Shown here one piece after another: positions 1,171 to 64,000 of a stretch of DNA of 64,000 nucleotides. Source of the stretch: Moniliella sp. 'wahieum' (lineage: Eukaryota); contig RSEE01000003.1 in NCBI GenBank assembly GCA_003971905.1, positions 434,001 to 498,000 of the forward strand, written 5' to 3'. The notes beneath the pieces are model-generated. The model searched no databases, was not told the origin of the DNA, and saw only the letters and a program-made list of their open reading frames with translations. The position numbers and the translations under genes are program-made. The first letter of the stretch is position 1. Each line of letters starts with the position of its first letter.

Positions 1171-2029
1171 CTAATCATTCTATTTCTCGTTCATTCCCCT
1201 CCCTTTCGCGTTGATCACGAAGAGGGAAACACATTTTGGGGGGTATGCGGCTCTGTTGGTGCCTCTCCTCTCTCTTACTACACAGATATGACATCTGTTT
1301 ATCTCTACATAACGATTTATAAAACTTGTTTTTATTGTAGTGGTTGTTGAGAGGAGACGGATATGTGACAGGTAAAGGTGGGGGGGGGGGGGGGGGTTCC
1401 TTGACGGAGGGCCGGATGGGAGATGATGTACGGGCGTATGTACATCCTTTGACTGTAGTCGTGCCACAGAAGACTTATGTGTTTGTGTGCGATAGAGTAT
1501 AATCAACTCCATATTCGCAGCCACACACACTCTGTACGTGTGGTCGGAAGACACATCAGTTGAGAGATGTGAATGATGTTTTGGTGAATCATTTCCTCAT
1601 CGATGATGAGCCGAAGACCCCACAGCTAGTCTCGTTTAAATACCTTTCTACTCTGAGCCCACCCTTCCCGCCCCAACTCCCATAGATACATTAATGATCA
1701 TCGCAATCCACTATACTGTTCGAGCCCAATAAAAGTCAACATCGCGGGCGGCATGCTGTGGAAGCTCTCCACACAGTCGCAGTACTATTGTCGGGCAAAC
1801 CAATACATAGCCTGTTTCCGATCATCGATCATTGCAGATCACATGTCACACTAGCGCCGCGCGGGAAATCTCCCCCCCAAGAAGCAGGCGTGTGCATAAC
1901 GCACTGGGTCACTGTCCCTGTATTATGCCGTGGCATGGACATCCGAGATGCTTTTCTGTGAGACATCGGCGCTCCGCCAACGCCGAAAACACTGATGTTC
2001 ACCAGCTCCTCACCTAACTCTCCCTCTTC

Positions 2030-2090
2030 CTGCCACTACCACCTCCATCACATCCACCACCTCCACCACCTCCACCACCTCCACCACCTC
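2030..2090 (+). repeat. 9-bp tandem repeat (CCACCACCT)n
   Basis: Four consecutive copies visible at ~2054-2089. Confidence 0.85.
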
Positions 2091-2149
2091 CTGCTTCTGC
2101 CCCAAATATTCATCACCTTTAATACCCGTTTACCGATTCAACCTCATCA

Positions 2150-5100
2150 ACATGGCCAACTGGATTGCTCGGAACTCCGAAACTCCGCATCAAATTCAAG
2201 TCTGCTGCCTACGAAAAAGGGTTGTCCGCTCACACTTCCCAGCCTGCCGGTCAGCAAACAGTGAACCCATTTTCAACACGCAATGCGGCGTTGAAGCCGT
2301 CCATATCTGAGACTTTAACCAAGGCGCCCGTCGAATTCACGCACCACTTCTTGCGTCATTCTTCAAGCGTAGGGGGGGTTGCGCGCCTCGTCATCAGGCC
2401 TTGTACCCCTTTTCTGAACCGCTCACACCATGCTCGAGCACCAGGGAACAACAGCAATCCACCGGCTACCCATCACGCCCCTCCTCCAGTTCTTCTCATT
2501 CAATTGAGCATGGTTCCGATGCGCCCGAACCAACTCAAGAAATAACACCAAGAAGAGCACCAACAATGCCAGAGGAAGTGCCATCTTCAGCCCCTATTGA
2601 AACCGGCGCTTGCTCAATCTTCCCCCCACCCCATATTGTCAGCCATTTCGACCAAGGAGGACGGTTCACCTACCCAGAAGAGAATTTTCGACGGGAATGC
2701 TGATATGCCTACAGTTACAATGCTCTCTTCGGATGGAGGAGCCGTACACACCCATCCCACCCAGCAAAAGAGAGGACATTCTCCAATTTGGGTTTGGGGG
2801 AGCTCCGAAAGGATTGGCCTCAGGCCTTGTCGTCCCCTCAACGACTCTTCTTCCTGCAGTGTCGTCGTTTCATTCGGATCCGCCCCAATTGGGTGAGCTT
2901 CCTTCGGTTCGTCCTTTAACAACGGAAGACTGGATGTTGGGGCCAGACCAATTCTTTGCGTCATCAACAGCTCAGATGGTGTAGGGATACATTTCCAATT
3001 CACCCTCCTCTCACCCTCAATTTGACGCCTGCGCACATTCTCTCCGCGAGAGACCCCTCTTTCAAGCCGGTACAGCCCACTGTTTTCCCGGGCACACCCT
3101 TCACACCGCAGACGTCTCGCACTCTCGACTGCCCGAGTAGAAGAGGCAGCATTCATTTTCTCTCTCATCCTTTCTCGCCCTGGCACGTTTTCGCACCCGC
3201 GGCCTTTATTGCAGCCACAACACTTCTACAGCATTCACATCCGCTTAATCTTTTCAATGCAAACTCACGCGCCTCTCCATCCAACCAAGGGGATATTTTG
3301 TTCCGATGTCTCCTTTGGCTTTGCTTTCCGTGGTTACTTCCCCTCGTTTTTGCTCAACGTAAAAGAACCGTTTTTTGGTTGACTTGCCTCATTACGTTGC
3401 TACTACTATGGTATATAGCTCCGAGAGCCGCCTCATCACAAAAAGCATCGTCTTGGCACCAAGAGGGGCTACTACTGTGTATCCAGTTTTTTTAGATGAT
3501 GACAAAAGCACCACAGTCCGATGTCAGTACTACTACATATATCATCCCCGAAGGGATGGAGCAGCCACCAGGGATGGAATATAGAGCAAAGCATTCCGGG
3601 CTGCTTGGGCCATCTATGCTGCAATCCAAGGCCAACTGACTTTAGTAAACACTCGGCAGTCATCTTGATGCGTGCGGCCATTATGCATTACAGAAGAAGA
3701 GGGGCACCGCCGCACCCCCCGAGAATGGCATCGTGACCAGCAGGCATCCGTGCATTTGGGGCCGTGTGGGGTGCCTGAACATTTCAGTGCATCCTGTGCA
3801 GCCTTGCCCGTGGATGCGCCTTCAAGCTTCATGATTGCTGGTTCTCTGTCTCCTGCCACTTGCTACTTGTCCACCCACCCAGGCGAGTCCCCCTTTGCCC
3901 GCCTTGTCCAGGCAGTGCTTCCCCTGTCGATCGCACCCGCCTGGCTCCTCCACGCCGCGTTGGTAACCGCCTGACTGTTGGCCGACGAGGATGCTGGCTT
4001 CTCTCGACCCCGTACGCCCATGCCACCACGCTGCTGAGGCAGAGAACAGTGGAATTGGTCCACCATCACCAAGCGTCCCCACGTTCCCGACGACCACTGG
4101 GCGGCGCGTAGGGCCACCCGCGCTTTCTCTTTCCCGGCCTGGTGATTGCCATGGGTGTTTAACGGGTACCCATGTCCTCCGCCTGCTGCATCGAGTTTGC
4201 CCACCGCCTCGCAAACATGCAGTATCAAGGCGGCGGGGGAAAGCTGCCACGGCGCTCACCTACTATATCCTGCGTTTGGTTGGTCATCATCACCTTTCGC
4301 CAACAAGGCTCGCATCCTCCTCCGTACCCTTGGTGACGCCATGGGCGCCTTCTTTCGGGGAAAGAAGTAATCGCATTAACTTGCGATCCCGGGTGTGTAC
4401 GAATAGGAAGGCATGGCACCCATGTTCCCTTTAGGTGCTGCCCAAGTTTTTGCTTATGTACCCGCATCGATGGGGGGTCCATGCTCGACATGTTTACCTC
4501 ACCATGGGGTAATCTGGGCTGAGCGCTGAATGCATCACAGCTATTTGCGCCATTAGCCTCCTTGCGGGCAGAGCTACAGGTGGAGACATCCGAGACTATC
4601 AACCAATCAAAGATGCATACGCATGCCACCGACGCGGACGTCTACTCTTCGCATTCGGATCGTTTGATGACCTTTTTGACGTGATAGGGGTGTATGAGCA
4701 GTGCCGCAATGAGTCGTTGCGCCAGGCGGGCATTCGTTGCGCATACGACTTGGTCGTGGTGGTACGATAGTACTATACCAAGCACCAGTGGTTTGGTCCA
4801 TTCAACAAAAAGCTCTATCAGCTCGTTCGCTGGAACGTCGATGGGCCCGGCGGCAAAGCCTTTGCTCTGTATGTGGGAAAGGCCAATGACTTTGTTTGGG
4901 TGTCAGACCCAGACCTGTTGATGACGGGTACTAACTCATCGTAGCTCTCGGATGCATCCTTTATTACTCGGCCATGTGCGGATCCATTGACTCCGTTGTA
5001 AGAACACAGCACAACGCGGCATTCCCACCTTTGCCTCGATTGGCTCGACATAAACCAGGCCATGAAAACTCCCAAGTTTTTACAAGAAGGCTGGTGCTCA

Positions 5101-5630
5101 CCCAGGTGGTTGGCCCTTTAGTCCCCCTAGCAGGGTTACTGTTAGTGATACTACTGCCACGGCACGATTGCCGTCTCTCGTTTGCAAAACCCGGTACACT
5201 CCCGGGGTAGTGATGGACGTATCCACAACATCTTCTCCCTTCACTGCAAACACAGGGGGGGGGCTTTGCAAGCTACGAGTTGGGGCGGGTAGCTCACCAG
5301 TGAGTAGCTGAGGCCCCCAACCCGACCGAGGGGTTTGCTACCAGCATGATCGAGTACCCTTACGTCGAGTGGGGTTCAGCTCTCGTTTGAACGAGAGATT
5401 AAGGACGACTACCGTCACGAGGACAACGTCACTCACACGCCCGGCGGTCAAGTCGATCCTCATCCAGGAGCGAGACGATGGAAGGTGGTACGACTCCTGG
5501 GCTATTTGCATGAGATACTCCGCCATGACCTTCAACTGCCGTATCGATGGGAGTATCAGGTGGTTCAGACACCATGGGCAGTCACTAGTCATTGTGTGGT
5601 CACACCCGACTACACAAGCACGATTTAGTA
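2150..5630 (+). pseudogene. Uncharacterised, heavily interrupted gene (orphan, pseudogene or decayed mobile element)
   Basis: Successive protein-like + strand fragments, e.g. RGRLLFAFGSFDDLFDVIGVYEQC, YYTKHQWFGPFNKKLYQLVRW...ALYVGKANDF, RWKVVRLLGYLHEILRHDLQLPYRW. No family recognised. Confidence 0.3.
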
Positions 5631-5955: not shown

Positions 5956-7250
5956 TCAACTCATATCGAAGGGTGTGGTACGATCCTCCTTTCTAGCCTT
6001 GGCTTTGAGTACGTTTTGTCGCCGCAGACGGTCACGCGCTTGCCGAGCCGTCCAAAACACTTCCTCCGCCTTATCTGGATCCTCGTTGAAGTTGCGTTCG
6101 TGGTCTCTGCGATTCACCGCTGAAATCTCGGCAGCTGCCAGGTCGACGCTAAAAAGCATATCACGTTCACCCTCGATGGAGATTGACGAACGGGGAAGGA
6201 GCTGGCCGCTCTTCGTGTCGTCCGAGGCCCAGAGCCCCACTTTTTGAGCATGAGAGCAGAGCTTTTTAAACAAAGCCGCATCCGACGTGATCTCCGACCG
6301 AGTCTCGACCAGCTCAAGCTGTCTTACCCCTTGCTGCTCAGTCCGTTGGCGCCGCAAGCCAACCGGCCGGGTTTGGTCCAGCGGCTGAATGCTCATCCGC
6401 TGTTGAAGGGGCTGGGATGCGGTTGGGGCTGACACCCACCTGTTGCATGGGAGCGGGCGGTAGGGCGCTAGAGTCCAATCCGAGTCAGCATCGTACCAGC
6501 AGAGTAGAGGGGGCACTTACCTCACGTTCCTTGGCCCAGGCCTTTTGGGTCTCCTTGGCCTTGGTGCGACTCAGGTCAGCCACAAAGTTAGCCACCTGAG
6601 CTTGAGCCTCCGGGTCACCCTCATGCGCCATCTCGAGCGTTTCAATAATCTGGAAAGAGGAGTAGATGGTCAGTTGGAAGTCCCGCTAGTAGAAATGGTG
6701 ACATACATTCATCGCCCGTTCCATCTGTGCAGCCACCACAGCAGGCGAGGTATTGCCACGGTGGTGTCGACCCCACTGGGCAATCCAAGGTGCAATGTTG
6801 GCGTAGTGGTGAGTTGGCACGACGGAAGGGGGAAGGGGCCGACGGGAAAGGCGGAGCAAATGACGATAGAGCACGTTGAAGTTCTTCTTGTGCTCAGGTC
6901 GACGGAAGAAAGGGATGGTCAAGCCGCGCTGGGGGGGGAGGAACAAGGAGGAGACCAACGCGGAAGACTCCTGGTCTGACAGAGAAGGAGTGACCTCCGC
7001 AATCGAGTTGGTGAGAGCCGAACCATCGTCTTGCAGTTCTTTGCCCGCCAGCCTCCTCCGGTAAGCGCACATGAGAGGTGGTGTGGAACCATCTACCCGA
7101 CCCATTTTTTCCCATTGATGCGGCGAACATTCGGCGAGGAGGGGAGGGAGCCGAACGGAGGGGAGTGCTGCTGAAGGCGAATGGAATGGTGGCGGTGGTG
7201 TATAGAGCTCGGGAGTAGTATAATCAACTGAATTTGTGGTGGGCTCCACG
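5956..7250 (-). CDS. LYR-motif (Complex1_LYR-like) domain protein segment; probably the C-terminal extension of the upstream Pol gamma
   Basis: IPFFRRPEHKKNFNVLYRHLLRLSRR...WIAQWGRHHRGNTSPAVVAAQMERA. Two canonical introns (6706-6650 gtatgt..cag; 6520-6468 gtaagt..tag) join in-frame coiled-coil-like exons ending at stop 5956. The ORF-track start at 7249 is GTG, not ATG. Confidence 0.6.
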
Positions 7251-7682
7251 CCTTTCCCACGGCCCTGTGCTCCGCTTTGGCGGTAGAATCCACCTTCCTT
7301 TTCGATGCCACCTTGCCCATGGGTTCCACCTTAACCTGGCGTCTCGTGGTACCGGAGTCTTTTGTAGCCCGCCTAGGTTGAAGTATGGCGACTGGCCAAG
7401 CTCCCGTGCCAGCTCCTTCCACCCCTCTTGAGCGTCTAGAGTAAGCTTGCCTTGTTAGAAGCAGCATCCAAGACCTTAATCTTACGGTCGAGTGCCGCTC
7501 TCTGCCCTCTTGGAGGTCGATTGGGCATAAAGGAAGCTCCTTCCCCGAACCCCTTCAGCTCGGTGGTGGGGATGGGTGAATAAATGCCGGGTAAGAGGGT
7601 GCCATCAACGCCTGAAACTCGGGCGTGTTGGTGTAAGGCGCAAACGCATGATCCGCAAGGGGGCTTTGCACGCCCCCTTCCT

Positions 7683-10600
7683 TCATCCCACAGGCATCCT
7701 TGGGGCGAGAATAGGCTGTCCCAGCCCCTCCGCCCCGGTCGCCTCAATCGTTTTCTCAATGGTCAGCGCCGATCCGGGGGGCACGGGCGTTGGGTGAGAT
7801 GGGGTCACACAAGGGTCTCCTGGCTCCTTGCGTAGCACCTTGTCCACATCCACTTGACTGAAGAAAGCGCATCCGAGCGGAAGGTCGTCCATTTCCAACA
7901 TGTAAGCAAACATGGACCGGGTCCACAAGTTGGCCACCTGCAGCGCCAACGCCGCCCGAGAAACATCCTCATCGCGCACAAGGTACCGCACATCATCGTG
8001 GAAAGAGAGGAGGAAGCGTGCCTCGATCCCATACGTTCGACAGAGGTGATCCATCGCAGTCAAGCAGGTGAAGGTAGTCCACGCCGCTAGACTGGACCAC
8101 CCAGTTGATCCGCGAAGGAAGGAAGGCCTCCTGCGCCGACCCGTCCGAGTTGGTCTTTGTGGGAAGGTATGCACGGCTCAAAGCGGTTGTGACTCCACAG
8201 CCCAAGACAGGTGTTCTAGGCCGATCCAAAACAGCGATAGACTCGAGCTTGTTGAACACAAAGCTCTCTGAGCCGCCATACCAGAAGCGGTGGCCAAAGA
8301 ACTTATTTCCCGGGGTGCGCTGTCCCTTGGTATGTTTGTACAGTTCCTTGGCACGTCTCATAGCTTCGTTGGGATCCATCGACGGGTCGGCCTTGAGCAG
8401 AAGTTGGGTCGCATGCTTCACCCCGGCCCCGTAGATACGCGAGTAATTGAACACCTTCGCCTCGTTACGAGATGTACCCAAAATCGAAGCCGTCTTCGAA
8501 TGCAGGTCAGTCCCAAGCGCCTTGGTGCCTTCGAGCGTCATCCACCCGATGGCTGTGCTGCCATGATGGCCAAATTGGGCATCACCAGGACTGAGCAAAT
8601 CCACAGCTCCTCCGAGTCCACATCGGCCCCAACAATCGACCACCCAGGAGGAGACTTAACCATTGTCTTGAGCTCACTGCCAACCCGAGTCTTCTTGGCG
8701 TTTGATGCAGTAAGCCAAGTCTGCTCGATCGCACGGCGCGTTACCGTTCCCATCTGGATCACCTGGGGTAGGATAAGACCCACATCGCCTGAGCCAGAAC
8801 TAGTTGCGCCCTCCGCCGCAGGTTCGCTCGTTTGGGAAGAGGGAATGGGTTAATCTGCACCCCTTCATGCCCATCCCATACCACCAGTTGGTTAAGCACG
8901 CGCTGTCGAGCCGAGATCCAGTACGAGCAGAACGCATTCAGGTCCAGTGCCGCCTTGGCAGTTGCGGGGGAATTGGCCGATGCGAGGACTCCCGTTTCAA
9001 ACGCATTGAGGAATGACTTACCAAAGGGATTTCCCACATTTGCATTTCCCCCATCCCCATGAGGAACCTTGAAAAACTCAGCCCCTGTATCCTCCTGGTC
9101 CATAAGGAGGGCAATGTCAGCACTGTTGGTGAAGAAAACTGGGGTGCCTCGGACGAAAGACCCCTCGCTTGCATCATCTGCTCCCTCCGCATCCGGTGTC
9201 GCATCTGCCGCTGTCGAGCCACCCGTGCCGGGTGCAGAGGTGCTGGCCTCACCCCAGCCCATTCGGAAAACCCACCCATGTTGACGAATAGAAGAGTGGC
9301 TTTTGGTGCCAGGTCATACTCATCAACAACGGAGCGGAACGGTTCCGCATCGACACCTTGACCTTGCCTCCGTCCTTGGCGAGATCCCAGTACCATTTGG
9401 GCCACCATTCTGCCCGGCGGGGGTCATCCTCAGCAAATTCATCAACGAGATCGTGAGCGGAAGACTGGGGCGTGGGGGCTGACGAGGACCGTGGTACCAG
9501 CGACCAATCCAGCTGACGAATGGGCAAGGGTAGCGTTTCAACAGAAGGAGTGAATGGTCCTCCGGGCAGTAGCCGCCTGCAAAAAGGGGTCAAGCAGGCT
9601 GCTGGCGAGTTGAGCAGTGTATGTTTTTGCCAGGGAGACATCCTTTTCCCGCAAGCGTCCAGCACTTTACCCCCCAAACCGAAGGTTCCACCGAGCCCAA
9701 ACCCTGGGGTCCGAGCTTTCTGGCAACTGAGACGGACAAAATGCTAGCGACGCCCGTGAGCTCATGCACAGGTTCCCCTAGCACCTCATCCGACCCAGGC
9801 ACAGGAGATACCGCCATAGCCTCGCAGGGTCGACCACCTTGGAGCACCGGTAAATCGCACGGCCGTTCCAGCTGGGCTGCACCAAGGCCATCGCAGAAGC
9901 GTTCGAGAGAGAGGTGACGGAAGGAACCTTGTCCGCCACACTTTCTCTCCCCTGGCGAGCACGAGATCGCGATACCATCGTGGCACATGGGTCTTCTGCC
10001 ACATCGCCAGCTTATTTGACTTGTTTTTGGGATTGGGTAGGCGGGGGCGTTTCGGGGACCAGTCTAGTTGCTTGAGCCAAGCATCTTGCGACCAAGGGGG
10101 CGACGCTTCCCCCATTGAAGGGGAGATGGAAAGGGGGTGCGATGGGAAATCGGGCTCGTCTTCCGCCTCTTCACCTCTGCTAAAGCGTGGTCAATGCTGG
10201 CTTGTTTCGCTGTGGCCCAGTCTTGCGCTTGCTGCATCGTGACACCCTGGGTGTACTGAACTCTGACCTGCTCCGCAAGGACGACAATTCATCGTCCAGC
10301 TGACTGCGGGCGCGCACATAATAGTCCTCAGCCCGACGGAGGTATTCCTCCCACTCTCGGTCGACAGGGAGACGAGTGGAGCCAAGTTGGAAGACACCAG
10401 CCAAGGTAGCCGGGTGGGGGCATGCATCATGACTAAAAGCAGGCCACACCTTGGCGTATACTTGGTGGGTAACCCACACATCCGACGCGCAGTAGTTCAA
10501 AAGAAATCCAACTGCTCCATGATCACGCTCTTGTTCTCCGCATCCATAAACACATTGCGTACTTCTTTGGGAAGAGTAATGTTGCAATGCAACTTGGCCA

Positions 10601-11876
10601 CCTCAGCGAGCGAATTGGAAGATGCGACATCTATCCAGTTGCGGCCTGCAAATCGGTCAAGAACGTCCATGTCGTGTGCAGCATCAATCGAAGCCTCCAT
10701 CTTCTCCTCCCAGGCGGCATCCACGGGGAAATCGGTCGTCGCAGCGAACTCCGCATCTCCTGCCCAAGGCAAACTGTGAGCGATCAAACTCGACGTCCTC
10801 CAGTGGTGCCAGCACATCTTCCTCATTTCGCAGCTGACGGGCTGTGGCAGCAGCTTGTTTCCGAGAGAGTCGCTTCTTGGTGATTTTTTTCCACGTCTGA
10901 CGCTGGGGGCTGGCTATACCCGCAGTAGCAGCATGAAGGCTCATGGTATCAAGCCACCGCGTAGGAGTGGGAGCAAGGGTGTACTCATCGCGGACCCTGA
11001 TGCGGTCATAGCCCACATTGTGTCCAACCACCAGACGGGCGACTTGGCGCCTTGGAGCGTCTGAACTCTGGCCAGGCCGCATTGGCTCCAGTTCTTCTGA
11101 ACCAAGAGGAATAAGTCGCATCGCATCTTTCTTTTCCTGCTCAGTGTAAGGGTGTTCTTTCCCCACATCCGAGCGTTCGGGTTCGAACAGCCATGGAGAA
11201 AGCCAAGAATAGAGCGCCTTGTCCGACAGGCAATGCCAGAACAGCAGGGAAGTTTGCCGCAGCCAACGTTTCGACGTCGAAAACAAGCGGACCGTCAGAT
11301 GCGGGGGGGTGGGGGACAGGTGAGCCAGGAGAGAGGTGGGTGATCTTGCCATCCGAGTCGCGCTGGATCTCGTACCGCGTCCATCCAGGCTTCCTCACCC
11401 ATTGAGGACGAGATGGAGAAGCTGGGTCTGTCGCGGAGGAGCAATAATGGGGGTTACACCCGTAGGAAACACGTTCGGGGAAGGAAAGGACGCATCCGCT
11501 AGCACGTTCGCCATGCCCAACCAAGGCTGGGCACTGGCGGCGCCGATGCGCCAGAAGTGCTCGGCCAGGTTTGCGCCTACAAGCGGAGGCATCATGGGGA
11601 ACTCGGGCTCAGGGAGAACAGAAGCAGCGTCAGGGGTGAGCCCATGCGACTTCAAGTGCGCCTGGGCGATCTTGAGGGCGTTGACATCAGGCGGGGCGAT
11701 AAAGTCGCTCGAGCCGGGGGGGAAGACGGTGGGGCGCAAGCGGCGGGGGAGGAGCTGGACTCCATGGGGGTTGCGTGGCGGGGGAAGGGCAGAGGTGTTG
11801 CGAGGGCCCTGCTGGGCGCCTTCAGCAGTGCGCGAGCCACAGCGGGCCTGGATCCGCGGGCCCACAGCGACAGCAT
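7683..11876 (-). CDS. MIP1: Mitochondrial DNA polymerase gamma (family A), multiple assembly frameshifts
   Basis: Presequence [19 protein letters not shown] from ATG 11876; ExoI VFDVET, Exo[11 protein letters not shown], Exo[32 protein letters not shown]; motif [12 protein letters not shown], motif [17 protein letters not shown], motif [22 protein letters not shown]. 3' end may extend to 5956. Confidence 0.97.
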
Positions 11877-12003
11877 TCCAGCCAGCTTGCGTTGGTTGCG
11901 CGCACTGGTGGTTTCGGGCCTGGCGAAGCGGAGGAAAAACGGACAGCGGAACGGGAGCACCCCTTCCGCTCCGCCGCCCACAGACTGCTAAATCAAGCGG
12001 GAG

Positions 12004-12047
12004 TCACTAGTCAAGCTTCAAGCTAGTCACATGTCACATGTCACATG
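12004..12047. repeat. 7-nt-period array TCA-CTAG-TCA-AGCT-TCA-AGCT-ag-TCA-CATG-TCA-CATG-TCA-CATG in the MIP1/RPL7 divergent promoter
   Basis: Read directly from the sequence. Confidence 0.85.
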
Positions 12048-12233
12048 CAGCTGCAGGCGCATGCCATCGACCATCGATCCCGATCATCTTTCAAGAGTTG
12101 TGCAATTGTGAAACAAACGAGACTTGCAGCTTGGAGCTTCGCACGTTCAACGTTTCAACGGTCGACTGAACGTTCATATCCGGCCCCATGTTTGCTCTTT
12201 CGCTTTCAACGATTGAGACCCGGGCGCAATAAA

Positions 12234-12262: not shown

Positions 12263-12391
12263 ACGGAGGAGTGTGCCCCTATGCCCAGTTGACTCTCCAA
12301 GGCAGGCTTGAGGTGGGCATCGTCAAACCGGAAGAACGCTCGGCAGACAAGAGCAACCCTTGTCCCTCAACCTCCGACACACCCCGACAAG

Positions 12392-17445: not shown

Positions 17446-18375
17446 CCTGATCGGCTTTGCTCCACAGGGGTTATTGCAGCCGGATATCGACCCCACAGTT
17501 GTGCGGTTGTAGCAGCAGCGAGTGTTCTTGCTGAGCTTCGCCAGGCCCCTGCCCCCCAGCTCTCTTGCTTCTAGTATCCCCTACGCACCTGGCTCTGGTC
17601 TATTCGGATCATTCTTGCTTCCCGCCAGCGGCCGTTGTTAGCGATGAGGACGTGCCCCGTTCGATTGGCAAAAATACTAAACGCGCACCCACATCGGCAA
17701 AAAAACTAGGTTTGTGCTCGTTTGCGTTCTCCCTGAACACTGAGAAGACAGAAACGGCTAGGAGGACAGAATTGAAGCCATGGTAGAGACTAAAACTCCA
17801 TTGGAGACCAAAGCTGTTTCTCTCGTCTCCAACTTGCCTCACGAGGAGAGAGAGGCATAGCGGGGTGGGTCTTGGTGCGTTGCCATGAATCGCAGTAATT
17901 CGCTGACACAGTATCTACAGCACAGCCAGTAGAGCACAGACAGCCAGCACTGAAGAAAGACCCTGCGAATTCCCGTTTGTTGGCCATGACTTCCAGTAGG
18001 AAGATATTTTACTCGCCACAGCACAAAGAGGGCCAGGACGTCAGTGAGATCCAAGCTCATGCCCTGGATCTTCCCTACATCGATAAATTGGTGCACGAGC
18101 ATGCCCGGCACCCCGCGGCCAGCATGGTCACAGAGTGCGGGACGAGAGCCGCGTGTATTGACTGACGATAGAGAGGAAGGAAAAAAGAGCCGAAAAGACC
18201 CACATTGGCGGCCTTAAGTACAAGATGGTCCCATTCGTGCGGTATGTGGTCAAGTAAACGTTAAACCGTGGGCAGGTACGCAGAAAGGAGTCTGAAGAAG
18301 AGAGCGCAGGGTGGCCACACGGGGCGCACACAAGCACAAATAAAAGCTTGCGGCATCGACATCCAGCATCCCCCA

Positions 18376-18535
18376 TGATGCATGATGCATGAACAACGCA
18401 TGATGCGAACAAAACCTGGGGGTCTATGCTTTGCTTTCCCATTGTGAAGCTTTCAGTGTGCGCAGTGCCTCATCGATCATCGATCATCGATCATCATACA
18501 TCACTTGCATCACGTGCAACGCATGTCACATGTCA
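18376..18535. repeat. Cluster of 7-nt-period palindromic arrays: (TGA-TGCA)n 18376-18392, (TCA-TCGA)x3 18470-18493, CATG-TCA-CATG-TCA 18522-18535
   Basis: Read directly from the sequence. Confidence 0.85.
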
Positions 18536-19309
18536 CACCTGGTCGCCAGAAGCCATATTTTCTCCGCCGGCTTCATCTCCACCTTGGGACATCTCCATAA
18601 AGTGACATCTCCGCTCTCCGCCCTCACCGATTCGATACTCCTCCATGATCTTTCCCCGTCGGTGAGGAGGTCCCATGCTCACCACACCGCTACCATCGGC
18701 ATCAGCGATTCATCCATCAATAATCATTCTGCGCCTAGCTTTTATTCGGCTTATTTATCGCGTTACGCGTTAATCGACCATCGACGTGCTGTGTCTACCG
18801 GCCCGGTCGATGCGGGTTGAAACGAAGCGGGAGGAGAGGGGCAAAAACAAGCTAGGAGATATATACAGAGAGCGGACAATCCCGGAACGTGACGTGTATT
18901 GTCACGCGTGATGCGTGATGAGTGATGCGTGATGCCATATGAAATCGAGCATTGGCGAACGGTGACCGGTGAGTATGTGCATGTGAGCCGAGTCAGAGCA
19001 CAGGAGACTGGCGCCGTGCGGCCGCGCTTGAAAGCTGGCGCTTGCATTCAAGCAGTGGAGTTAGCGAGCTTATTTACTCCGAGGTCGCATGGGGCCAGTC
19101 TTTACCCCGGGTGGCACCTGCGCCTCCCCCACAAGTAGGGGCGCGACGCATTATAGACCCAGCGCCTCATAACGGGCATCGTTTTCTCCGCCCCTCGCAC
19201 CACTCTTAAAGACCTGGCGCTCGTACCCTCGTGGGCTCCGCGCACATCGCATTCCTCGCCCCCCCCATTCCGACTGCACGGCCTGCACCAGCCCCACTCC
19301 CCGCCCCAA

Positions 19310-19612: not shown

Positions 19613-20743
19613 TCGTTGAGCTCAACACCATCTAGCCAAATTTTTCATTTTCTCCTCCCCGCCCGTCCAACGTGATGGGGACGGGGTACGATCGTTGCAT
19701 TGCATCAAAAACGTACGCTTTTACGCGTCCCTGACGACTCACATTTTACTGTTCCCATCCGGCTCACGATTCGAGATGATCCTTGTCCTCATATTCCATC
19801 TCCCCGTCCAGTGCAGAGGTGGACCGTCCCCTTATTGGGGTCATGCTTGTTGATATATACCTGTCTTTGAGGTACGTTTGTTTGATCATACGGGCCTCTT
19901 TTGAATCAAAACTGGCATACTGACAGTCCAATAACCCTTTGTGCAGCTCCATTCACCGGCCGTTCACCCCCATTTGTGCCCTTTCTGTGTGCCAAAACCC
20001 TGCCATCTTTGCTTATGGTGGCTCTTGCGATTCAATCTCGCTCCATGTGTGTATTTCAATAAGGGGGGAGGGGAAGGAGCAGCGCGGTTTGTTATCTGTT
20101 GTGGCCCATCGTGTTCGCCAATGCCATTAACTGTGTATACTATTGGGGAGGTATCTCATATTCCAGAGGGGGGGTTATAGAGTGTAATGGACAAGTCAAG
20201 AAAGAGATGCAAGTTGGTGCTGCAGGAGGGCGCCGATTGGTTCATTTTGCCACCTTGTATTCAGAGCGTCAATCATGATGCATGACAACCACACGCAAAC
20301 GCTACCCACCTCCAGACGTTAGAGGCAAACTGACCTGATCGAAACGAGTAGTATATATGGTACCGAGTACGAACAAGTACTGGTGCTCAGTTCTTACCCC
20401 ACATGAACCCCTGTCGTAGAGTTAAAATGGTAATCTCGGATCCCACATATGTCATCTTTTCTTCTCTCTGGTTCACTGCATTATATCATTTGCAAAGCTT
20501 CAGACGCAGGGGTATAGAAACACTGCGCCTACCAAGTTCGGGCCTCATCGGCTCATCCTAAAGAAGCTCCGCCTGAGCACAATCATTAATCAGCGGGCTG
20601 ATCACCATCCCTTTTGATATTGTTTGCCCGACTGGGTAGTGCTTGTATCTGCCTGTTCTTCTATCTTACTACAACTAGTCGAGAAATATGGAGGATGCGT
20701 AAGGAAGAGTGACAATGTGGCGTAGGACATAGACAGACGGCAT

Positions 20744-27588: not shown

Positions 27589-28553
27589 GGTGTGGTGGTG
27601 GGAGGAGGGGTGGGTTGGCTTCTGAAGACTAAAGAGGCTGAGGATGGCTGGCTTTATACTGTTTAGAAATGTGGGTGTTGCATGCACCTATACTGTATCG
27701 ATAGGTTGCGTTACGCACCCACACACACAGATGTTGCAGTGGTGGTGGTTGCTAGTAGCGATACAACCAGAAACGCATACCATACTGGCCCTATGCGGCA
27801 CTGCTATAGTGAAGCAGTGTGTGCCGTGTAAGATATATACTTTGTACCACAGGTTGTACCTGGTGTATACCGCACAGACTTTTCTGTTGAGTGTGCTTAA
27901 CATCATGTTGCAGCGGCGGTCTCGAGGCCTCAGGGAAGGAGTGCCCCGTCTCACCACAGAGTTCTCAACGAAAATGATTCACGTTAAGTAACGAGCTGCG
28001 ACCGTGGGCAACGAGTAACGGACGCACCAACAGGTCTTAGGCCACAAAAAGCATATGCCAGTGAAGCAAGGGATGATCGAGATCAAACACAGCTATGTGG
28101 TGCTTCCCCCGTCCTATAATGTTGCGGACATCCGAGGTACCGTCAGCCTCTTATTGGTGTACAAAGTGTAGGTCGAACGTGCTGAGCATTGATCGGCAAC
28201 CATGTGAAAAGATCTTCTAACAGAAGATGAGATGAATACATCGCTTGTTGTGTGGTCTTGATTTTCATAGTGAAAGCCGCATGGTATCGAATATACCGCG
28301 GGGACTATCGATTACATGTTACACCCCCCAACGATTATCATTCTGGTGATTATAATGCGTAATTGCCATACTGATGGAGGTTGATCGTGTGCCAGTGATG
28401 CTGATGTTTGTTTTGACCTAAACACTCAACGTACTCTACCAACCTTGTTCGCACGTCGCGAGTATCTTACGGTCGGCGTATCACACACAACTCGGCGAGC
28501 GAGACACATCCCAGATCAGAGTTAGGGTTGGCGCCTAGCAGCGCTCAAGTGCC

Positions 28554-28670
28554 TGAGGCCTGACACTAGTCAGGGCCATGTCACAGATCTCTCAGGTACA
28601 AAGGCGCGCATGCCGATCTTAGATCTTACGCACAATGCATGATGCATGATACGTAGCGGATGATCGATGA
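28554..28670. repeat. Cluster of 7-nt-period palindromic units: TGA-GGCC-TGA, GATC-TTA-GATC-TTA, TGCA-TGA-TGCA-TGA, TGA-TCGA-TGA
   Basis: Read directly from the sequence. Confidence 0.8.
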
Positions 28671-30569
28671 CGCAGATGGTGCCTATCGCGCCTATCGACT
28701 ATCGACTAATATCTCTGACACAGTCATATAACAGTTACACAGTCATCTATACCAGTTGCAGTTACACTTGCAGTCAGCTAGTCATAGAACAGGTTAGAAC
28801 GCGTATATGCGTTGTCCATCGGCCACCCTTTCCCGTGGCTTGTCTTGGAAGCGAAGGCCAATATGCGAAAGCACATCTATTCGGATTTCCGAAAGGATTT
28901 CCCATCATGTTGTGACATGTGAGTTCGCTATCACCATATGGCAATGCGGATGTGATACGCCTATATATGCAACAAGGCAATCGCTGCACCAAAAGGCCTA
29001 TACAGTCCAAGGCCTAAGGGCCCGTGGGCGTTTCTTTGTGATCCTTTTGCATAAGCTATAAGCTTTGCTGATGACATTTTGATGGACATACTATGGATCC
29101 GCGGCTAGCGGCTCGCGAGCGATAGAAAATGGGAATGAGATGCATATGAGATTGGGGAGCTATATACTGATGGCTAGGCCTCTGCCTGACCATCTGAGAC
29201 GCAGGGGGATTGATTGTTATTGGAGAGAGCAAAAGGCACGTACAGTAGGTTGTGCGATGACGTGCAGCGTGCCGCACTTAACCCCCGACCACGCGGTACA
29301 GACGGTAGATGGGTTCTGGACCACCGATGGCCCCAACACAGTCATTGTGCTTTGGATAGATGAACGTTTACATAGCGCTAGAAAGACACTATAGAGCAGG
29401 CCGTACTTAGGCAATCTCCATATCACGGTAGAAAAGAATATGCAATCCGTGGAGCGCACTCTTCTTCCATATGCCCTGTCCCAGCCTTCAGCTTTGTCAA
29501 AGACATGGATACATAGGAGTCCAGGTCTATTATAACATTTTTTGCAAATTGAAGCTTATCGCCCTGTGGTCGACTTCCCGCTCCTCATCGGTTCTTGTCT
29601 ATAGGCATACTTTCGGCGGGGGGCTGTTAGGTGGTCATATACAGCTTCCCCAACAGAGAGACTTTGTGAAGCTGGCATTAAGGTTACGGTCATCTGTTCT
29701 CGCGCCCGGGCCTATTCCTTTGTGTGTTTTGCTGTCTTTTCGCTTCCCCTCCTGCTTTTCTCCATCGTGCACCACGACCGAACTTTTGCTTCCACTTACG
29801 AGTCCATATTCGTTCACCCTCTTCGGTGCTTCTCTCGGCGATCTGATTGCCGCAGCCAGTTGGCCACTATGGTGCAACCAGACAGGGGAATTAAAATCAC
29901 TGGTCCCCGATGACCAGACCTAACAACCGTGGGGAGAGTGCCTGCTGCGCCCACAGGATGTCCCCCCCGCACCAGCATTGTATGGGCTTCAAACGCTTCA
30001 TGCGTGTGATTCCAATGTTAAGCTTTAAGTCAGACACTACAGTAATGACGAATAGCCATCGATTACCGCGGCCTTACTGTTGGCAGTTACTAGTTACTAG
30101 TTGCTGCTGCTAAGCGGTAAGCGCCAGCAGGTCATAACCTTGTTTCTCTCGCCACTCGGTTCCAAAGAAGCGCCAGTGGATGCGGCTGAGGGTGGTGGAC
30201 ACGCGAAGGGGGAGCTTCAGTCTCCTTTCCTTTTCATGGCAGCTAGGTTCCTTTATCGACTTTATCGTGGGAAACATGAGCATCCTCAACTGCACGGTGG
30301 AGTAACCACGTGTTGGGAAAAGGCTAATAGTACAGCCCGTTGGCGCAGCACATGCTTCCCCACAATCTCTATTCCATAGTAACCTTATCATTGACAGAGC
30401 TTAACTGACTGGGACAAAGAAAGGCGGCGCCTAAACCTACCCGTTCATCCGGCGTGTGTGTTTCTTGTTAGCGCCATCCTGCAATCCCGCTCAAGGTTCT
30501 AGGGAATCGACAGGAGATCAGGTCCCTCTGGTGCCCGTCATCTGAACGACGGTGAACCATCTCCATTGA

Positions 30570-35449: not shown

Positions 35450-35933
35450 CTAGAAGAAACTAGACGCGTCGCTCTCGCGGCTTCTTGACGATACGAGGGA
35501 CGTATCTGGCGAGTAGCCCGGGGCGTCGCGTGTGGGTTTGAACTTGCCCTGGCCTACATACGTGTAATAGCCTTCACCGTAGCGCACATACGCCGCATTT
35601 TCCCTTAAGCAAAACAACTGTCGTCAGTACTGCATAGGTCATCCGGTCATATATACCAACAATAGCCCCGGGAAGGGAGTATACACAAGAAGTACATACT
35701 GGTACAAGAGCCACCAGGCATGAATCCAGCCTGGTACCAAGCCCAAAATGGTCAACACTAAATTGATCCCAACGTCGTTGCAACATCCGATAGTGAGCCT
35801 GGGCTGTATATCAGCGTTTAATGCCTTTTGTCGCTTCCTTTTCCCCTGAATGAGTGGGAATACAACGTACAGCGACCGCCAAAGGTGGGCAAAAGATGGA
35901 GATAGCAAAGACGACGGTCAATCCCAGGCCCAT
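35450..35933 (-). CDS. PMP3: Pmp3/UPF0057 plasma-membrane proteolipid
   Basis: AISIFCPPLAVA | ..GCCNDVGINLVLTILGLVPGWIHAWWLLY; two introns (35870-35804; 35699 to ~35605). Confidence 0.88.
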
Positions 35934-36443
35934 ATTTTGGTGAAGGTTATAGGTGGTGGGCCAGGTGGTGGTGGGAGAGTGAGCCGGGGTAGGCGCACAA
36001 GATACTCTCAAGACCACTGTTTGCTGCGGTTTGTCCAGCGTGAGTTTAATGGCCAGAACATATGCTGGCGACTCCACTGTGGTCTCCTGGATTATTTATG
36101 GGTTGAGCGCAAATAAGCAGCACACCCGGATGAGCGAGCCGGTTAACCGCAGCCCTCTTTGCTCCAGCCTTAAGCTCTGTAAACCGCATGAATGCTGCAG
36201 GAGAAGGGTGTGAGGTCTTCCCTTGACCTTGAGGCCTGAGGCTGCCTGACCGTCTGACCCCCCTGAGAGCCTGGCCGAAGAGACTCTGTAAGTTTGTACG
36301 AACCGCGGATGGTTGAAGTAGCGACACTGATTAGGTAATACACACTGCTACGTGGACACGGCCCCCCTGCGCTGCGGCATAGATGATTTTCGCCGGTTGG
36401 TTGCTTGCCGGACTGCCAATCGCCCAACTACCACCATCACAGG

Positions 36444-40534: not shown

Positions 40535-40741
40535 ACTATTTTTTCCCATTTAAACAACAGTGCTCGGCGTGGGCATAGGCAATTGATGGCGCACAGACCA
40601 GCAAACTCTAGTCCAGAAGAGTTGCTGTGTTACATGTTACGCTAGATACGAGTTACCAGTTACCATAGTTACCACCATCTCCCTCCGCGCCTCAACAACA
40701 ATGGAATTCCTCCACATACATAATTGTCCGCTTCCATCGAT

Positions 40742-48193: not shown

Positions 48194-48391
48194 GTCGACG
48201 CCCACCGGGCGCGCAATGAGACGCAGGCCAAAAGCCGTGTCCATGATGCGGAGAAAGAAGGCGTGCGGCCAAGAAGGAAGGCCGCAGAGCCTGGTGGGGT
48301 TTGCTGGCGGCTGGCGGCTGGAAGCTGTGGAAGGTATTTAGACCAGAAGCAAGCGAAGGAGAGCAAACCGGGCCGGGGGGGGGGCCTGGTG

Positions 48392-48417
48392 TGACATGTG
48401 ACACACGTCACATGTGA
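48392..48417. repeat. TGA-CATG-TGA and TCA-CATG-TGA palindromic units upstream of EFM6
   Basis: Read directly from the sequence. Confidence 0.75.
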
Positions 48418-48735: not shown

Positions 48736-50082
<1,347 letters not shown>

Positions 50083-53400: not shown

Positions 53401-53963
53401 CGCATTCGCGACCAGGAGATTGCTTTGCTGCAGGCGGGCAAGTCGGGCAAAAAGGGTGGCAAGAAGAATGCCAATGTGGGTTGGATGCCAGAGACGTACA
53501 AGGAGAAGGAGCCCAAGGAGCTGCGCATCTTTGTCGCCAAGTCGTTCCCGCAATGGCAGCAGAAGGTTGCCGCCATGCTGGACAAGTTGACCAACGCCGA
53601 GGGTGTGACGGACGATGTGGCGCTGCGCAAGGAGCTGGCGACAGCTGGCCTCTTGAAGGACAAGAAGGTGATGCCGTTTGTGGTGAGCCTCAAAGACCGC
53701 CTCAAGACGTTTGACCGCGAAACGGCCTTTACCCGCACCTTGCCCTTTGACGAGTTGGCCACCCTGACCAGCATCCGCGGCTATCTCGGCCGCACCATGC
53801 AGTTTGTCAAGGTCACTGTCGAGTCGGCCGAGGATTGATTGCGGCGTTGCCCCCCGCACCCGAGGACGCCACCGCGTTCCCCGACCGCAAGACCCTCGAG
53901 CTGGCCGAACCGGGACGGCCCTCGTTTGTCTTCTACAACCAGGGCACTGCGCCGTCGGCCTAA
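50448..53963 (+). CDS. CDC60: Cytosolic leucyl-tRNA synthetase
   Basis: [14 protein letters not shown] (HIGH), [51 protein letters not shown] (CP1 editing), [19 protein letters not shown]; intron 50880-50953. Confidence 0.98.
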
Positions 53964-54040
53964 AAGTGTCCCCTCCTGCCCCCCATTCGATGCTTCATTC
54001 CGTCCCATGCCTCACCAGCCCCAGTCTAGCGATTTTAGCG

Positions 54041-54305
54041 ACTAGTGAGTGACCAAGTGACTAGTACTAGAGGGTGTGTCCAAGTGGTATAATCCAGTAG
54101 GTCTTTTGGGGCCTGGGCTCCGTATGGCTCCTAGTACAGTAGCGGCCATGGGACCGAGGGAACCAAGAGTAAATTGTCTGTCCCGAGAACCGAGAGTGCA
54201 ACAAAAATGGAGGACAGATGAGATGCGACATGTGACATCCATCACATCACATGTGACAATGGAGTACATGTGGCAGATAATCGATGATAGATGATCGATG
54301 ACATG
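54041..54305. repeat. Cluster of 7-nt-period palindromic units (CTAG-TGA, TCA-CATG-TGA, TAA-TCGA-TGA-TAGA-TGA-TCGA-TGA-CATG) between convergent genes
   Basis: Read directly from the sequence. Confidence 0.8.
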
Positions 54306-54429
54306 CGACAGATGGTACAAGGCCAAGACAAGACCATAACCATCCCGCGCAGCCTCGGGCGTGCTCGGCCTTGCGCGGCGAGAGTCATAGTCCGGCCAAG
54401 GAATCAAGGGAATCAAGGGGTAAGCTGTG

Positions 54430-60411: not shown

Positions 60412-61785
60412 TCGCTCTTGCTGTTTCTTTCTCTGTTCTTATCACCCCCGTTTCGTCCTCGACGAGAACGGAGCGCAGCGAGTCCTTGTACGGGGTTGCT
60501 GACTTCCCAGGCGGAGGCCTTATTCCCTGCCCATCGGAGACAAGACTCACGGTGGAGGGCTGTGTGTTGTACCTTTGGACCATACTATCGGCACAATTGG
60601 ATCTAAGAACAGACAAACAGGTGTTATAGAAGAGAATGGAGACAAAAGAAAATGCCAGCAGGTCTACAGCGAAAAGGGGAAACGAGCCAAGGGGGGAGAA
60701 GTGAGAGCCAATAACGAATAAAGGCACGGAATGACAGACGAGGCGAGAGTTAAGGGCAAAACGGAACCGAGAGGATAAACGAAAGGCTATAGAAACCGAG
60801 TCGAAATCATCTGTAGTGTTTTGAATTTTAGACGAGTGCGAGCGGGAGAAGAGACGATTGTTGCAGGCTTGTTAGGGCAGCATTGTAGTCATTCGCTGCC
60901 TCTTTCCCTCCGTCCCCGAGTACAAACAGCTTCAGCTAGGCACACGTCCTTACTGTCCGAGCCGATGACTACGCATCCTTGCGACCCAAGCTACCGCCTT
61001 GCAATACTTCGAAAGGCCTCTCTCCACCCTTCCCCAAGGCCCGGTCGGATCTCCACCAAAAAGCCCAAGTGGCACGCCACCAGCGACCTCTACATAGGGT
61101 GTACAAACCCCCCCGGGTGGGATACCATGGCCGGGCCCCGGCCATGGCACACTCGTCTGTACCGATGACAAGTGTTAAACTCAGATACCGGGCCTATTCT
61201 ATACATATTGGAACTTACGACCTCCAACAATCGCCGTCCCATCGATCTACGACGGACGCCGGCTCAGCATTTCTGATGTTTCACCTTACTCGAGGGATAT
61301 CTCCCTTTGTCTCCTCCCATCTCTGGCACATCCTTCGAAACCCTCATCGTGACCCCCGCGGCGTATCTTCAGTCGGCACTTGGCTTTCCTCTGCCATTCA
61401 TGTCGAACAACCACAGAGGCTACGACCTATCGTGTGGGTATTATTGTCTAGTATTCCCCCTCTCCCTTCGTGGGGGAACAGCAGGTGCTCTCCACAGAGT
61501 ATACATGTTGGTGTTTTATAATAGAGGATGGGACAATTGAGAAAGAGCCATTAGTGAGGGAGGAGAGAGGAGATAGGAGCGAAACGAAATATATGATGAG
61601 TACTGAGTTCCAAACAGGGGAGCCAGATAGTTGATAAGGTGGGATGACAGGAAAGGAGTTTCGCCTCATAATGGGTCACACACAGATACGCACCGGCTGC
61701 GCGTGTATGACCCTGTTCAAGATCTTCCTTGACTGGTGACCCCTAGCTTGACCCTTTTGTGTTTGTGTCTCTCATTACTCATTAT

Positions 61786-62640
61786 TTACTGTGTGATTAA
61801 TGATTGCTTCTCCTTTTCTCTGGTATAAGGCATCATTGCATATGCAGCTGAATATCCTGAATGAATACCATGTGGTTTATCGGAATCCAAAGCAACCCCT
61901 TCCTTCACCTCTCGCTTACTAGAAAAAATGGCATGCATCTCAGTGTGAGAGACAAGTTGTAGCTGGTTAGTTTCCTCCATCAGTGGAAGGGGGGGCGCAG
62001 CTCATAGTTCTTCTTTGCCCAATGGTCTGCTGAAGCCGACTTAACCGTATACTGCTCTCATTCTCCTGTTGTCCTTCCCCCCCTCCCTCTGGCAGAAGAG
62101 ATAATGGTATCTCATCCGTATAGACTGTGGGGGCGAAGTTTCCACCCCGTCGTTATCCACCTTAATCCACCTTGGCATATATTCAGTACTATACGAGTGA
62201 ATCAGTTGACACCACGCATTACGGTGAGATATGTGTACTTCTGCCTTCGTTTTGTGGTTTAGCGTCAGTTTCGCCACGGTGCACAAACACCTCGTTCACT
62301 CTGTTGTTCTGTCTTACCACTGGTCCCCGCGAATGTGTGCTAAGCCGATGCTAGGCGTGTGGTTGACGTACTTTACTTGATGAGCCTGCGCGAGTCCCAC
62401 CCGTGCTATATTGACAGCAACCTGAAGCAGCCGAAGAAAAAGCCGAGCCGAGAAGACACGGCCCGGCGGCATATCACGTAGAGCTGACACGGAAGGCAAC
62501 CTCCAGTGTTTTACTAACGATGATCGATTATCGATGAACGATGGCAATTCTCCGGCACATTCATGTATATTGTCCCACACTTGTACCTCTCCGAACTCAG
62601 CTCTCGGCCTCTTTGTCCTTTTTTTGTCTCGTGTCAACAT
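61786..62640 (-). other. Possible interrupted hypothetical gene
   Basis: Fragments MLTRDKKRTKRPRAEF...HIRGDQW (followed by a gtaag donor), PRWIKVD...YHYLFC and a terminal fragment; no family recognised. Confidence 0.25.
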
Positions 62641-62766
62641 GTCAATAACTGTAAGGCGCACCGACGTCCAATGATTAATGTTCCCTACGAACGAACCGCC
62701 TGTGTGCAAGAAAGCCGAGTTTCTGAGCGACTCTCAGATCTCAGCTGGTCTTGGCCCCGACCCGAG

Positions 62767-62879
62767 TGACTAGTGATACTAGTGACTAGTGAGCCGCTGA
62801 GCTCAGGCATCGGTGTATTCATATCCGTTTCAAGCGTCAAGCTCACTCATCGATCATCGATAACCTCGATAACCGGTAA
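62767..62879. repeat. 7-nt-period arrays (TGA-CTAG)n 62767-62792 and TCA-TCGA-TCA-TCGA-TAA..TCGA-TAA-CCGG-TAA 62847-62879
   Basis: Read directly from the sequence. Confidence 0.85.
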
Positions 62880-64000
62880 CCTGCCGCCGTTGTGGTATCC
62901 TACTCAGTTCCAGTAGGGTTTATAATTCGGAACAAAAGTCTGGTATTAAGCGGCTGAGAGAAATTAGTTGCACAGCCGATGTTCGTGCCTCTAATGTACT
63001 GTGGTGAGACCCTCAGGCCTCACATCTGAGATCTGGAGAGTCTGAGATACGAGAACCGGCAGTCAGATCCCTCTAGCACTATAGTAGCCACTTAAAATGT
63101 AGTCTTGAAGCAAGCTTCAAGTCATCAAGGGGGTGTCTTGGTGTCTGCACTCTTCTGTGTTCCCTACTATGAGGCTAAGTATACCACACAAGCAAGACAC
63201 ATAATGTTATGCTTGTTGCATGATGCATATGATGCTGTTCGACCGGGTGAACCGTCGGTACTGAACTATATACAAAGGGATACATCCCAGGGTGTGTTAT
63301 TGTACACCAAAGAAGAAACAATCCTCCAACCTATTGGTATTTGATCAGCTTTTGAGCTCGTCCACCGCCCCCCAATCCGACGACATCTGCTTTATTCATG
63401 TATATAGGGATCTACAGCTAAGAGGGACCGAGGCGGCAGCTAAGAAGTAGAAGAGGGGGGAAGGACACTCCTATGTGAGAGAGAAGTGAAGCCACACAAG
63501 CGTTAGTCGCTGACAAAAAAAGGACCAAAAAAGACGGAGGAGTCTTGGGCGGCAAAAGACGAAGAGATGAGAGGAAGAGAGCAATGACGCGCATTAGAGT
63601 GCCCGTCTCGTCTGTTCTAAACCTTCTGTCCAACAACCGTAAAATTCGAGCAGCGCAACTCCCCCTATAGAGAGCTCCAATGGAACTATTACATACGCCA
63701 TGCACTGTTGTCAGGGAGCGTTTGGACCCGACAACGCCTAGTGTGGCATCTCATACCAGGCCTCAGGCCTCAGTCATTTCTTACGCAGGTCCTCATTAGC
63801 CAAGGTGACGCTAGGATATTGGGTTCAATGTTGGCGACAACAGCTTTCTTTTTGGTTTTTTGTGCTGAAGAAGGAGAGAATGGAGGAGGATGCGGTTTTG
63901 TATCAAAACCGCTGGAACTAAGACAAAAACTGAAAATACAAAGAGAAGAAGAGAGAATGTCTTTTTACCTGCTCCACGTACACTCTTGGATCATTGCAAG

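Follow-up and report, generated by a model that had tools for sequence, protein, structure and literature searches.

Heptamer arrays centred on T-N-A in Moniliella sp. 'wahieum' as probable iterated excision footprints of DNA transposons

We examined a 64,000-nucleotide stretch of DNA from Moniliella sp. 'wahieum' (assembly GCA_003971905.1, contig RSEE01000003.1, positions 434,001 to 498,000; hereafter the window), in which many intergenic regions carry short arrays of a T-N-A triplet alternating with a 4-bp palindrome at a 7-nt period. We read these arrays, with a probability of about 0.85, as iterated excision footprints (here called scars) of cut-and-paste DNA transposons that insert through a 7-bp stagger with T-N-A at its centre. 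The window was compared with further contigs of the same assembly, which comprises 69.5 Mb in 223 contigs.

Sequence rule of the heptamer arrays

An earlier note, made from the letters of the window alone, had described the pattern at 26 positions, and we found the motif at each of them, either exactly or at most 4 bases away. In the window, 59 of the 171 T-N-A-N4-T-N-A 10-mers have a palindromic core, far above the 8.3±2.7 expected from 60 local dinucleotide shuffles, the 6.8 expected when 4-mers are preserved and the 11.4 expected when 6-mers are preserved. The claim of a constant period also held, as among 60 geometries (flank base T, A, G or C; spacer 1–3; core 0–8) only flank T with spacer 1 and core 4 stood out, at a ratio of 7.1 (the next reached 2.7, with counts of at most 6). 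All 16 palindromic cores are represented among 263 hits in 264 kb, and one 17-mer array occurs 666 times genome-wide (reversed control, 7). Scar centres occur at a density of ∼0.7–0.8 per kb, with 42 in the 64-kb window and 206 in ∼251 kb of a second contig, C21. The earlier note saw no such arrays inside coding exons, and none of the 42 distinct centres lies within 11,546 bp of coding frames picked by hand, where 7.6 were expected, and counted by cluster (17 clusters) this avoidance has P = 0.034. In 80 metagenomic loci of other fungi (739 kb, none from a close relative, with best segments 24–44% identical) the same count gave 9 scars and 6, 19 and 16 at control triplets, compared with 49 scars and 0, 0 and 1 in the window alone.

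The unit of the pattern is a site yz-TNA-wx written twice, with four junction bases between the triplets that are either wx followed by its reverse complement or the reverse complement of yz followed by yz. The palindromic core had been thought free, and is in fact set by the two flanking bases. Of 516 hits in 464 kb (a sample that takes in allelic stretches, so that some are counted twice), the middle base of the triplet is identical on both sides in 416, complementary in 42 and unrelated in 58. Flipped perfect 10-mers, to which the earlier note gave weight, thus make up a minor share (in the window, 7 of 59), and we rejected them as the primary event since, given base frequencies, they are not in excess of the mismatched class. 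Among the 416, the largest class (109) is that in which the period-7 match reaches exactly two bases further on one side only.

The 7-nt class TNAwx-x'w'-TNAwx was found 616 times on both strands in 584 kb from which the duplicate allele was left out, while control triplets gave 5, 11 (G-N-C) and 21 (C-N-G). Longer classes in the same sample numbered 68 (8 nt), 46 (9 nt) and 0 (10 nt). A 10-nt scar would require an 8-bp duplication; the unit that is duplicated thus extends no further than 7 bp, with N in the middle. The proposal of a TNA-targeting transposon is supported as regards the T-N-A centre but not as regards a 3-bp duplicated target, the duplication being the 7-bp nnTNAnn. A target duplication of only 3 or 5 bp, combined with a fixed remnant of the element, was rejected because the core follows the flank and because the 8- and 9-nt scars reach exactly 7 bp.

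At 395 sites that distinguish the two mirrors, 79 junctions mirror the left flank throughout, another 79 mirror the right flank throughout and 13 are plain duplications; at control triplets, mirrored junctions number 0–4 and 1–8. A microsatellite grown by slippage was rejected on the same counts, the plain 7-bp duplication being no more common at TNA (13/395) than at control triplets (29/274, 43/710 and 44/584). Full 7-bp duplications carrying one or two mirrored bases, on either side, number 24, 24, 18 and 13.

These counts bear directly on template switching, or fold-back synthesis by a polymerase during replication or repair, as a source of the scars that needs no transposon. The inserted bases are indeed all copied, directly or inverted, from adjacent sequence, and three of the 32 fitting 7-nt indels between alleles described below are not at TNA. 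A switch of this kind, however, predicts a complemented middle base, whereas the same base prevails (416/516), without an excess of the flipped class; nor does it explain the preference for T-N-A (616 against 21 for C-N-G and 11 for G-N-C), the sharp 7-bp limit or the agreement with the target duplication of a transposon. The same-base and triplet tests already largely refute this explanation, and we hold it to be very improbable.

Allelic scars and a 4.9-kb element

The assembly holds three versions of the region, on contigs C3 (the window), C21 and C36. We observed the region in triplicate as C3, C21:440-720 kb and C36:40-320 kb, with C21 and C36 near-identical (∼3% substitutions). C21 and C36 are ∼94% identical to each other, and both are ∼78% identical to the window across conserved stretches only. 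This triplicate suggests a hybrid, a polyploid or a mixed assembly, and C21 and C36 were taken as alleles.

The alignment of C21 with C36 spans 246,776 columns and contains 7,745 substitutions. Clean indels of 5, 6, 7, 8, 9 and 10 nt number 33, 37, 59, 25, 23 and 6, respectively, an excess at 7 nt. Of the 59, 32 consist of 5 duplicated bp and two mirrored bases, with 29 lying at TNA and three elsewhere; five of the 25 8-nt indels and five of the 23 9-nt indels match the longer classes, all in the nnTNAnn register. The scar-making process is recent and still segregating. We infer from their structure that the indels are gains, which would give ∼1 new scar per 270 substitutions between the alleles (29 against 7,745) and an allele-specific rate of ∼29 per 9,842 TNA sites.

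The same comparison weighs on two further explanations. Long-read basecalling or assembly error might be suspected, since the sequence is error-prone: small indels disrupt the frames of housekeeping genes such as the mitochondrial DNA polymerase (window 6700-12000) and leucyl-tRNA synthetase (50300-53840), breaks that are most likely assembly errors, and 1–2-nt indels dominate the allele comparison. Yet 113 of the 206 C21 scars have a counterpart at the aligned place in the separately assembled C36, which argues against basecalling error, and an artefact would hardly avoid coding frames, follow a strand-symmetric rule and match a transposon duplication; we give this explanation next to no credence. 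A cis-regulatory or DNA-shape code under selection, recognised by a dimeric protein that tolerates varied spacers, would fit scars that lie outside coding frames, cluster intergenically (including in a divergent promoter region) and are in 113 of 206 cases common to the allele. Against such a code, the core is dictated by a one-sided flank and takes all 16 forms, 93 of 206 scars are unmatched in an allele only ∼3% diverged, the 29 rule-abiding indels between two alleles are left unexplained, and selection against frameshifts already accounts for the avoidance of exons. A selected code is therefore highly improbable as the origin of the scars, although single scars may later have been co-opted as regulatory sequence.

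Around 32 larger insertions also separate the allelic contigs, among them Helitron-like, solo-LTR-like (long terminal repeat) and MITE-like (miniature inverted-repeat transposable element) pieces. The Helitron-like insertions lie between A and T and end in CTCCTCG, the solo-LTR-like pieces carry 5-bp duplications, and a 117-bp MITE has CATAG ends and a 2-bp duplication. An 802-bp insertion in C36 (reverse 100853-101656) has a 7–8-bp duplication fitting nnTNAnn, no visible terminal inverted repeat (TIR), and a terminal motif in common with other repeats.

A pattern search for paired ends gave two candidates, one on C11 and one at C16:880656/884850, of which the latter was rejected as a chance pair. 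The former, C11:228241-233089, is an element of 4,849 bp that carries subterminal repeats; its inverted ends are 83 bp long and 93% identical. Searching its end genome-wide returned 19 matches, made up of five full copies, one 378-bp derivative and single ends; the far end of a diverged copy on C66 was not found. All 19 ends begin CTCACTG, with CACTG starting at base 3. The five full copies measure 4.85–4.97 kb and are 4–16 substitutions apart in 3.6 kb, which suggests recent movement rather than long decay.

Four of the five full copies and the 378-bp derivative are flanked by perfect 7-bp nnTNAnn duplications (GTTGATG twice, CATCAAC, GATCATG and GATGATG), while the fifth, on C11, has flanks that are unlike each other but both in the nnTNAnn register. 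Immediately before the element, nnTNAnn is present at 18 of the 19 ends, two extra bases intervening at the 19th; with the two discovery ends set aside the figure is 16 of 17. These ends represent 10 distinct sites beyond C11, and chance agreement is ∼4% per site.

We compared occupied sites with their homologues on other contigs. The allele of the C35 insertion, on C46, is an empty site with a single CATCAAC, which fixes the target duplication at 7 bp. At C29 the element sits between two copies of GTTGATG, and the C53 allele reads GT-TGA-TG-CA-TGA-TG followed by the right flank, so that C53 carries exactly the predicted scar where C29 holds the element. Insertion of the element into an older scar is disfavoured, because C29 retains no part of such a scar, and an independent scar at an occupied site has a chance of ∼2% over the seven sites compared, a figure that hot spots would raise. 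At the site shared by C23 and C8, the alleles differ by a replaced segment. Here we also observed that the allelic element ends (L195:1480-1520 on C8, L197 on C23) differ by a CT between the target site and the terminus; the two bases may have arisen as palindromic nucleotides rejoined to the element end, or through a 2-base stutter. At the C20/C22 site the 7-mer is present once, preceded by 13 extra bases, and the C149/C49 site has a short palindrome that is off the rule. At the C11/C54 site (L183 and L212), C54 has neither element nor scar and C11 lacks 67 bp present in C54; with both breakpoints in the nnTNAnn register in C11, the C11 element in place of these 67 bp looks like a transposon-adjacent deletion. 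The homologues of C38 are missing the site, and for the C34 copy no allele was found.

Proposed mechanism, classification and alternatives

The proposed pathway would begin with insertions of the kind seen at these sites, in which the 4.9-kb element, with its ∼80-bp TIRs and CTCACTG ends, duplicates exactly 7 bp (yz-TNA-wx). On excision, the transposase may leave both flanks as blunt hairpins at the duplication edges, as RAG and Transib do; the hairpins are suggested by a palindrome of even length whose axis falls on the edge of the duplication. A host nuclease would then open the hairpins mostly 2 nt past the tip, giving the 4-nt 3' overhangs wx x'w' and z'y' yz. End joining that retained one overhang whole and lost the other, by trimming or by later resolution of a 4-nt heteroduplex, would add 7 nt and give yzTNA-wx x'w'-TNAwx or yzTNA-z'y'yz-TNAwx, the products seen in the sequence; less trimming would give the rarer 8- and 9-nt scars. 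Each scar would provide two further nnTNAnn sites, of which one is palindromic, and repeated visits could build the heptamer arrays, perhaps lengthened by slippage. That each scar supplies new targets would explain mixed arrays such as that at window 12002-12045, which sits between the divergent genes for mitochondrial DNA polymerase and a ribosomal L7-type protein. Selection against frameshifts would exclude scars from coding frames. The single DRMBL-family match in the genome is a candidate hairpin opener only. Of the three origins first proposed for the pattern, we thus keep the transposon footprint, joined to hairpin opening, and set aside both template switching and a regulatory or shape code.

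The CTCACTG element itself is difficult to place. In its frames, HNTLH followed by a W..W....E stretch occurs in one and CRPC in another, and the HNTLH frame aligns with a frame of a gene on C34 (E 3e-6, in a single pairwise comparison), whose adjoining frame has a weak hit to PF02992 (EnSpm Tnp2), below the cut-off. A bridge protein, P0056, matches both the element frame and the C34 gene; further homologue searches with the C17 transposase and P0056 added nothing, and P0057 matches only unnamed eukaryotic clusters. We observed EnSpm-type (PF02992) genes at L101:4100-7300 (C17, with an allele on C62) and L102:3200-6900 (C34). No TIRs were detectable for either, and they are decayed or domesticated; the C17 gene is also present as an allelic copy, and scar arrays lie upstream of it. 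A separate ∼440-bp repeat at L101:3116-3555 has several hundred candidate copies genome-wide.

The element thus appears weakly EnSpm/CMCT-like by sequence. The CMCT clade comprises EnSpm/CACTA, Mirage, Chapaev, Transib, Plavaka and ESTA, and is described in PMC12730594 as having target-site duplications (TSDs) of 2–5 bp, mostly CA..TG termini, and transposases in which C(2)C and H(3-4)H motifs precede the last catalytic E; the fungal CNIRT6 and CNEST are given 3- and 2-bp duplications (PMC12810828). Like these, the element has TIRs with subterminal repeats and CACTG within its terminus, and it is weakly similar to a PF02992-bearing gene of the same genome; its candidate CxxC and HxxxH motifs lie in separate frames, and catalytic D residues were not located. 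Unlike them, it has a 7-bp duplication rather than 2–5 bp, and CT-CACTG rather than CA termini. We did not place it in CMCT/EnSpm because it departs from the clade in these two defining features (the 2–5-bp TSD and 5'-CA..TG-3' ends), although it works like a CMCT member. As a speculation, the CT-CACTG ends and the 2+3+2 target could both follow from cut sites shifted 2 nt outward. PIF/Harbinger, which targets TNA or TWA, was rejected, the duplication being 7 bp rather than 3 bp and no match to PF13359 (DDE_Tnp_4) being found. The element has the same 7-bp TSD length as hAT7 of rust fungi (PMC12730594); it is weakly EnSpm-like, and no hAT domain was seen in its frames. A genome search for the hAT dimerisation domain PF05699 gave no match, and was silent in control genomes too, making it uninformative.

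Several observations weigh against the excision-footprint reading. The exact scar was found at one of seven homologous sites, the others being one empty and five atypical or uninformative, and since it was found only once an independent hit at a hot spot could account for it. Between the alleles, 27 of the 59 clean 7-nt indels are off the rule. The CTCACTG family prefers wx = TG, AC, TC or AG, and scars with CT, CG, CA, CC, GT and GG are common too. No additional element family was found to explain the remaining cores, a scan of 864 kb for TIRs with TSDs yielded arrays only and no TIR element with such a duplication, and the window holds no end of the CTCACTG family. Finally, 12 frames of the element give no Pfam hit, the hAT domain included, and all five full copies share in-frame stops, some of which may be introns; the element may therefore lack an intact transposase. 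By wx, scars per 1,000 sites number 32 for AG, 23 for TG, 22 for CT, 21 for TC and 10–15 for CG, CA, CC, GT, GG and AC, a spectrum wider than the targets of this family, and other or older families must therefore be assumed.

The same breadth would suit a hit-and-run process, in which this transposase, or a TIR-less domesticated relative, cuts with a 7-bp stagger at nnTNAnn and the ends are filled, hairpinned and rejoined, so that most scars never held a transposon. The excess of scars over elements (∼0.7–0.8 scar centres per kb against only five full copies and 19 ends) also fits this process, as do the two PF02992 genes that lack detectable TIRs, one with an allelic copy. The scar of C53, however, lies exactly where the other allele holds the element, and non-replicative hopping of a few copies would leave one scar per hop, which makes a second mechanism unnecessary. 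We regard hit-and-run cutting as unlikely and retain excision footprints as the explanation.

We also raise, as an outside chance, a broader picture: that an undescribed CMCT-related transposase with cuts shifted 2 nt outward is now a standing genome-writing mutator, which cuts, hairpins and reseals T-N-A sites, often with no element left behind or even placed; that it acts through few copies or a TIR-less domesticated gene and is a main source of new promoter-region sequence and heptamer repeats in the lineage; and that it has left some 45,000–57,000 scars in the assembly, by extrapolation.

Scars of the window and relation to known systems

The window carries genes for mitochondrial DNA polymerase, a ribosomal L30/L7-type protein, histone deacetylase, a kinase, leucyl-tRNA synthetase and a fungal transcription factor domain. 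Among named proteins, those closest to its BFR1-like protein come from smut fungi (39–44% identity), which makes a divergent member of the Ustilaginomycotina the likely source. Separately, we observed seven or more similar copies of the ribosomal L7-type gene (window 12380-13450) across the assembly, compared with three expected from the contig sets. The scars of the window are listed in Table 1.

Table 1. Scars and scar clusters in the 64,000-nucleotide window.
Position	Strand	Feature
1820..1850	.	Two 5+2 scars (cores TCGA, CATG)
3679..5591	.	Single scars at 3679-3690 (TGCA), 3820-3831 (AGCT), 4518-4529 (GCGC) and 5580-5591 (CTAG)
12002..12045	.	Mixed array of iterated scars (CTAG, AGCT, CATG x2)
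12146..12159	+	8-nt class scar (6-bp duplication and 2 palindromic bases)
18255..18972	.	Densest cluster, 9 scar centres (ACGT, TGCA, TCGA array 18470-18495, CATG, CGCG, CCGG)
20274..20592	.	Single scars TGCA (20274-20285) and TTAA (20581-20592)
28312..28922	.	Cluster of 6 scar centres (CATG, GGCC, GATC, TGCA, TCGA, CATG)
30018..30098	.	Scars AGCT and CTAG (the CTAG scar extended on both sides)
30251..30266	+	9-nt class scar (whole 7-bp site duplicated, 2 palindromic bases between copies)
35637..35650	-	8-nt class scar
36230..36241	+	GGCC-core scar, upstream of p24/EMP24 frame
40628..40639	-	CATG-core scar
48390..48417	.	CATG scar, then flipped 10-mer (48408)
54247..54301	.	Flipped 10-mer (54247) and TCGA scars, downstream of leucyl-tRNA synthetase gene
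61597..61805	+	Scars GTAC and TTAA
62632..63022	.	Cluster of 8-nt scar (62632), GATC, CTAG x2, TCGA, 9-nt scar (62859-62874), CCGG and GGCC
63761..63772	-	GGCC-core scar

The steps proposed above have documented counterparts. Flank hairpins are reported for hAT, Transib, RAG and Muta1 (PMC5499845), and Artemis is described as opening hairpins primarily at +2, giving 4-nt overhangs (PMC2175297). As in V(D)J coding joints and Transib excision, with blunt flank hairpins opened by Artemis:DNA-PKcs, as set out in these two sources, the scars have an even palindrome centred exactly where the flank ends, most often contribute two palindromic bases, and fit end joining with trimming; they differ in being far more uniform, in lying on a 7-bp target duplication and in being spread genome-wide in a fungus. 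The footprints of Ac/Ds (hAT) in plants, budding yeast and Candida albicans likewise combine a target duplication with palindromic (P) nucleotides from flank hairpins, as described in PMC5873905, according to which the centre of an Ac palindrome is the complement of the base that borders the element. The scars here, unlike those of Ac/Ds, lose no base and have their symmetry axis between bases. Closest in setting are the numerous intergenic 10-bp repeats of Ustilago maydis, suggested to be transposon footprints (PMC4081816, citing Laurie 2012). They too are many, short and intergenic, in a smut fungus, and have been read as footprints; the comparison is by description only, the passage on them in PMC4081816 giving no rule, mechanism or element. 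In the literature searched, with subscription journals thinly covered, we found no genome-wide, rule-exact footprint signature of such density.

Excision footprints with P nucleotides are already known, and are usually read from a few hundred assay clones. The footprints described here would instead be a genome-wide, still-segregating mutational signature, offering a very large natural sample of hairpin-end opening and joining in a fungus and a traceable route to the birth of tandem repeats without initial slippage. They would also provide sequence evidence that an EnSpm/CMCT-like element excises via blunt flank hairpins like those of RAG and Transib and has a target (7 bp) beyond the range stated for the clade, together with a candidate explanation, open to testing, for the 10-bp repeats of Ustilago maydis.

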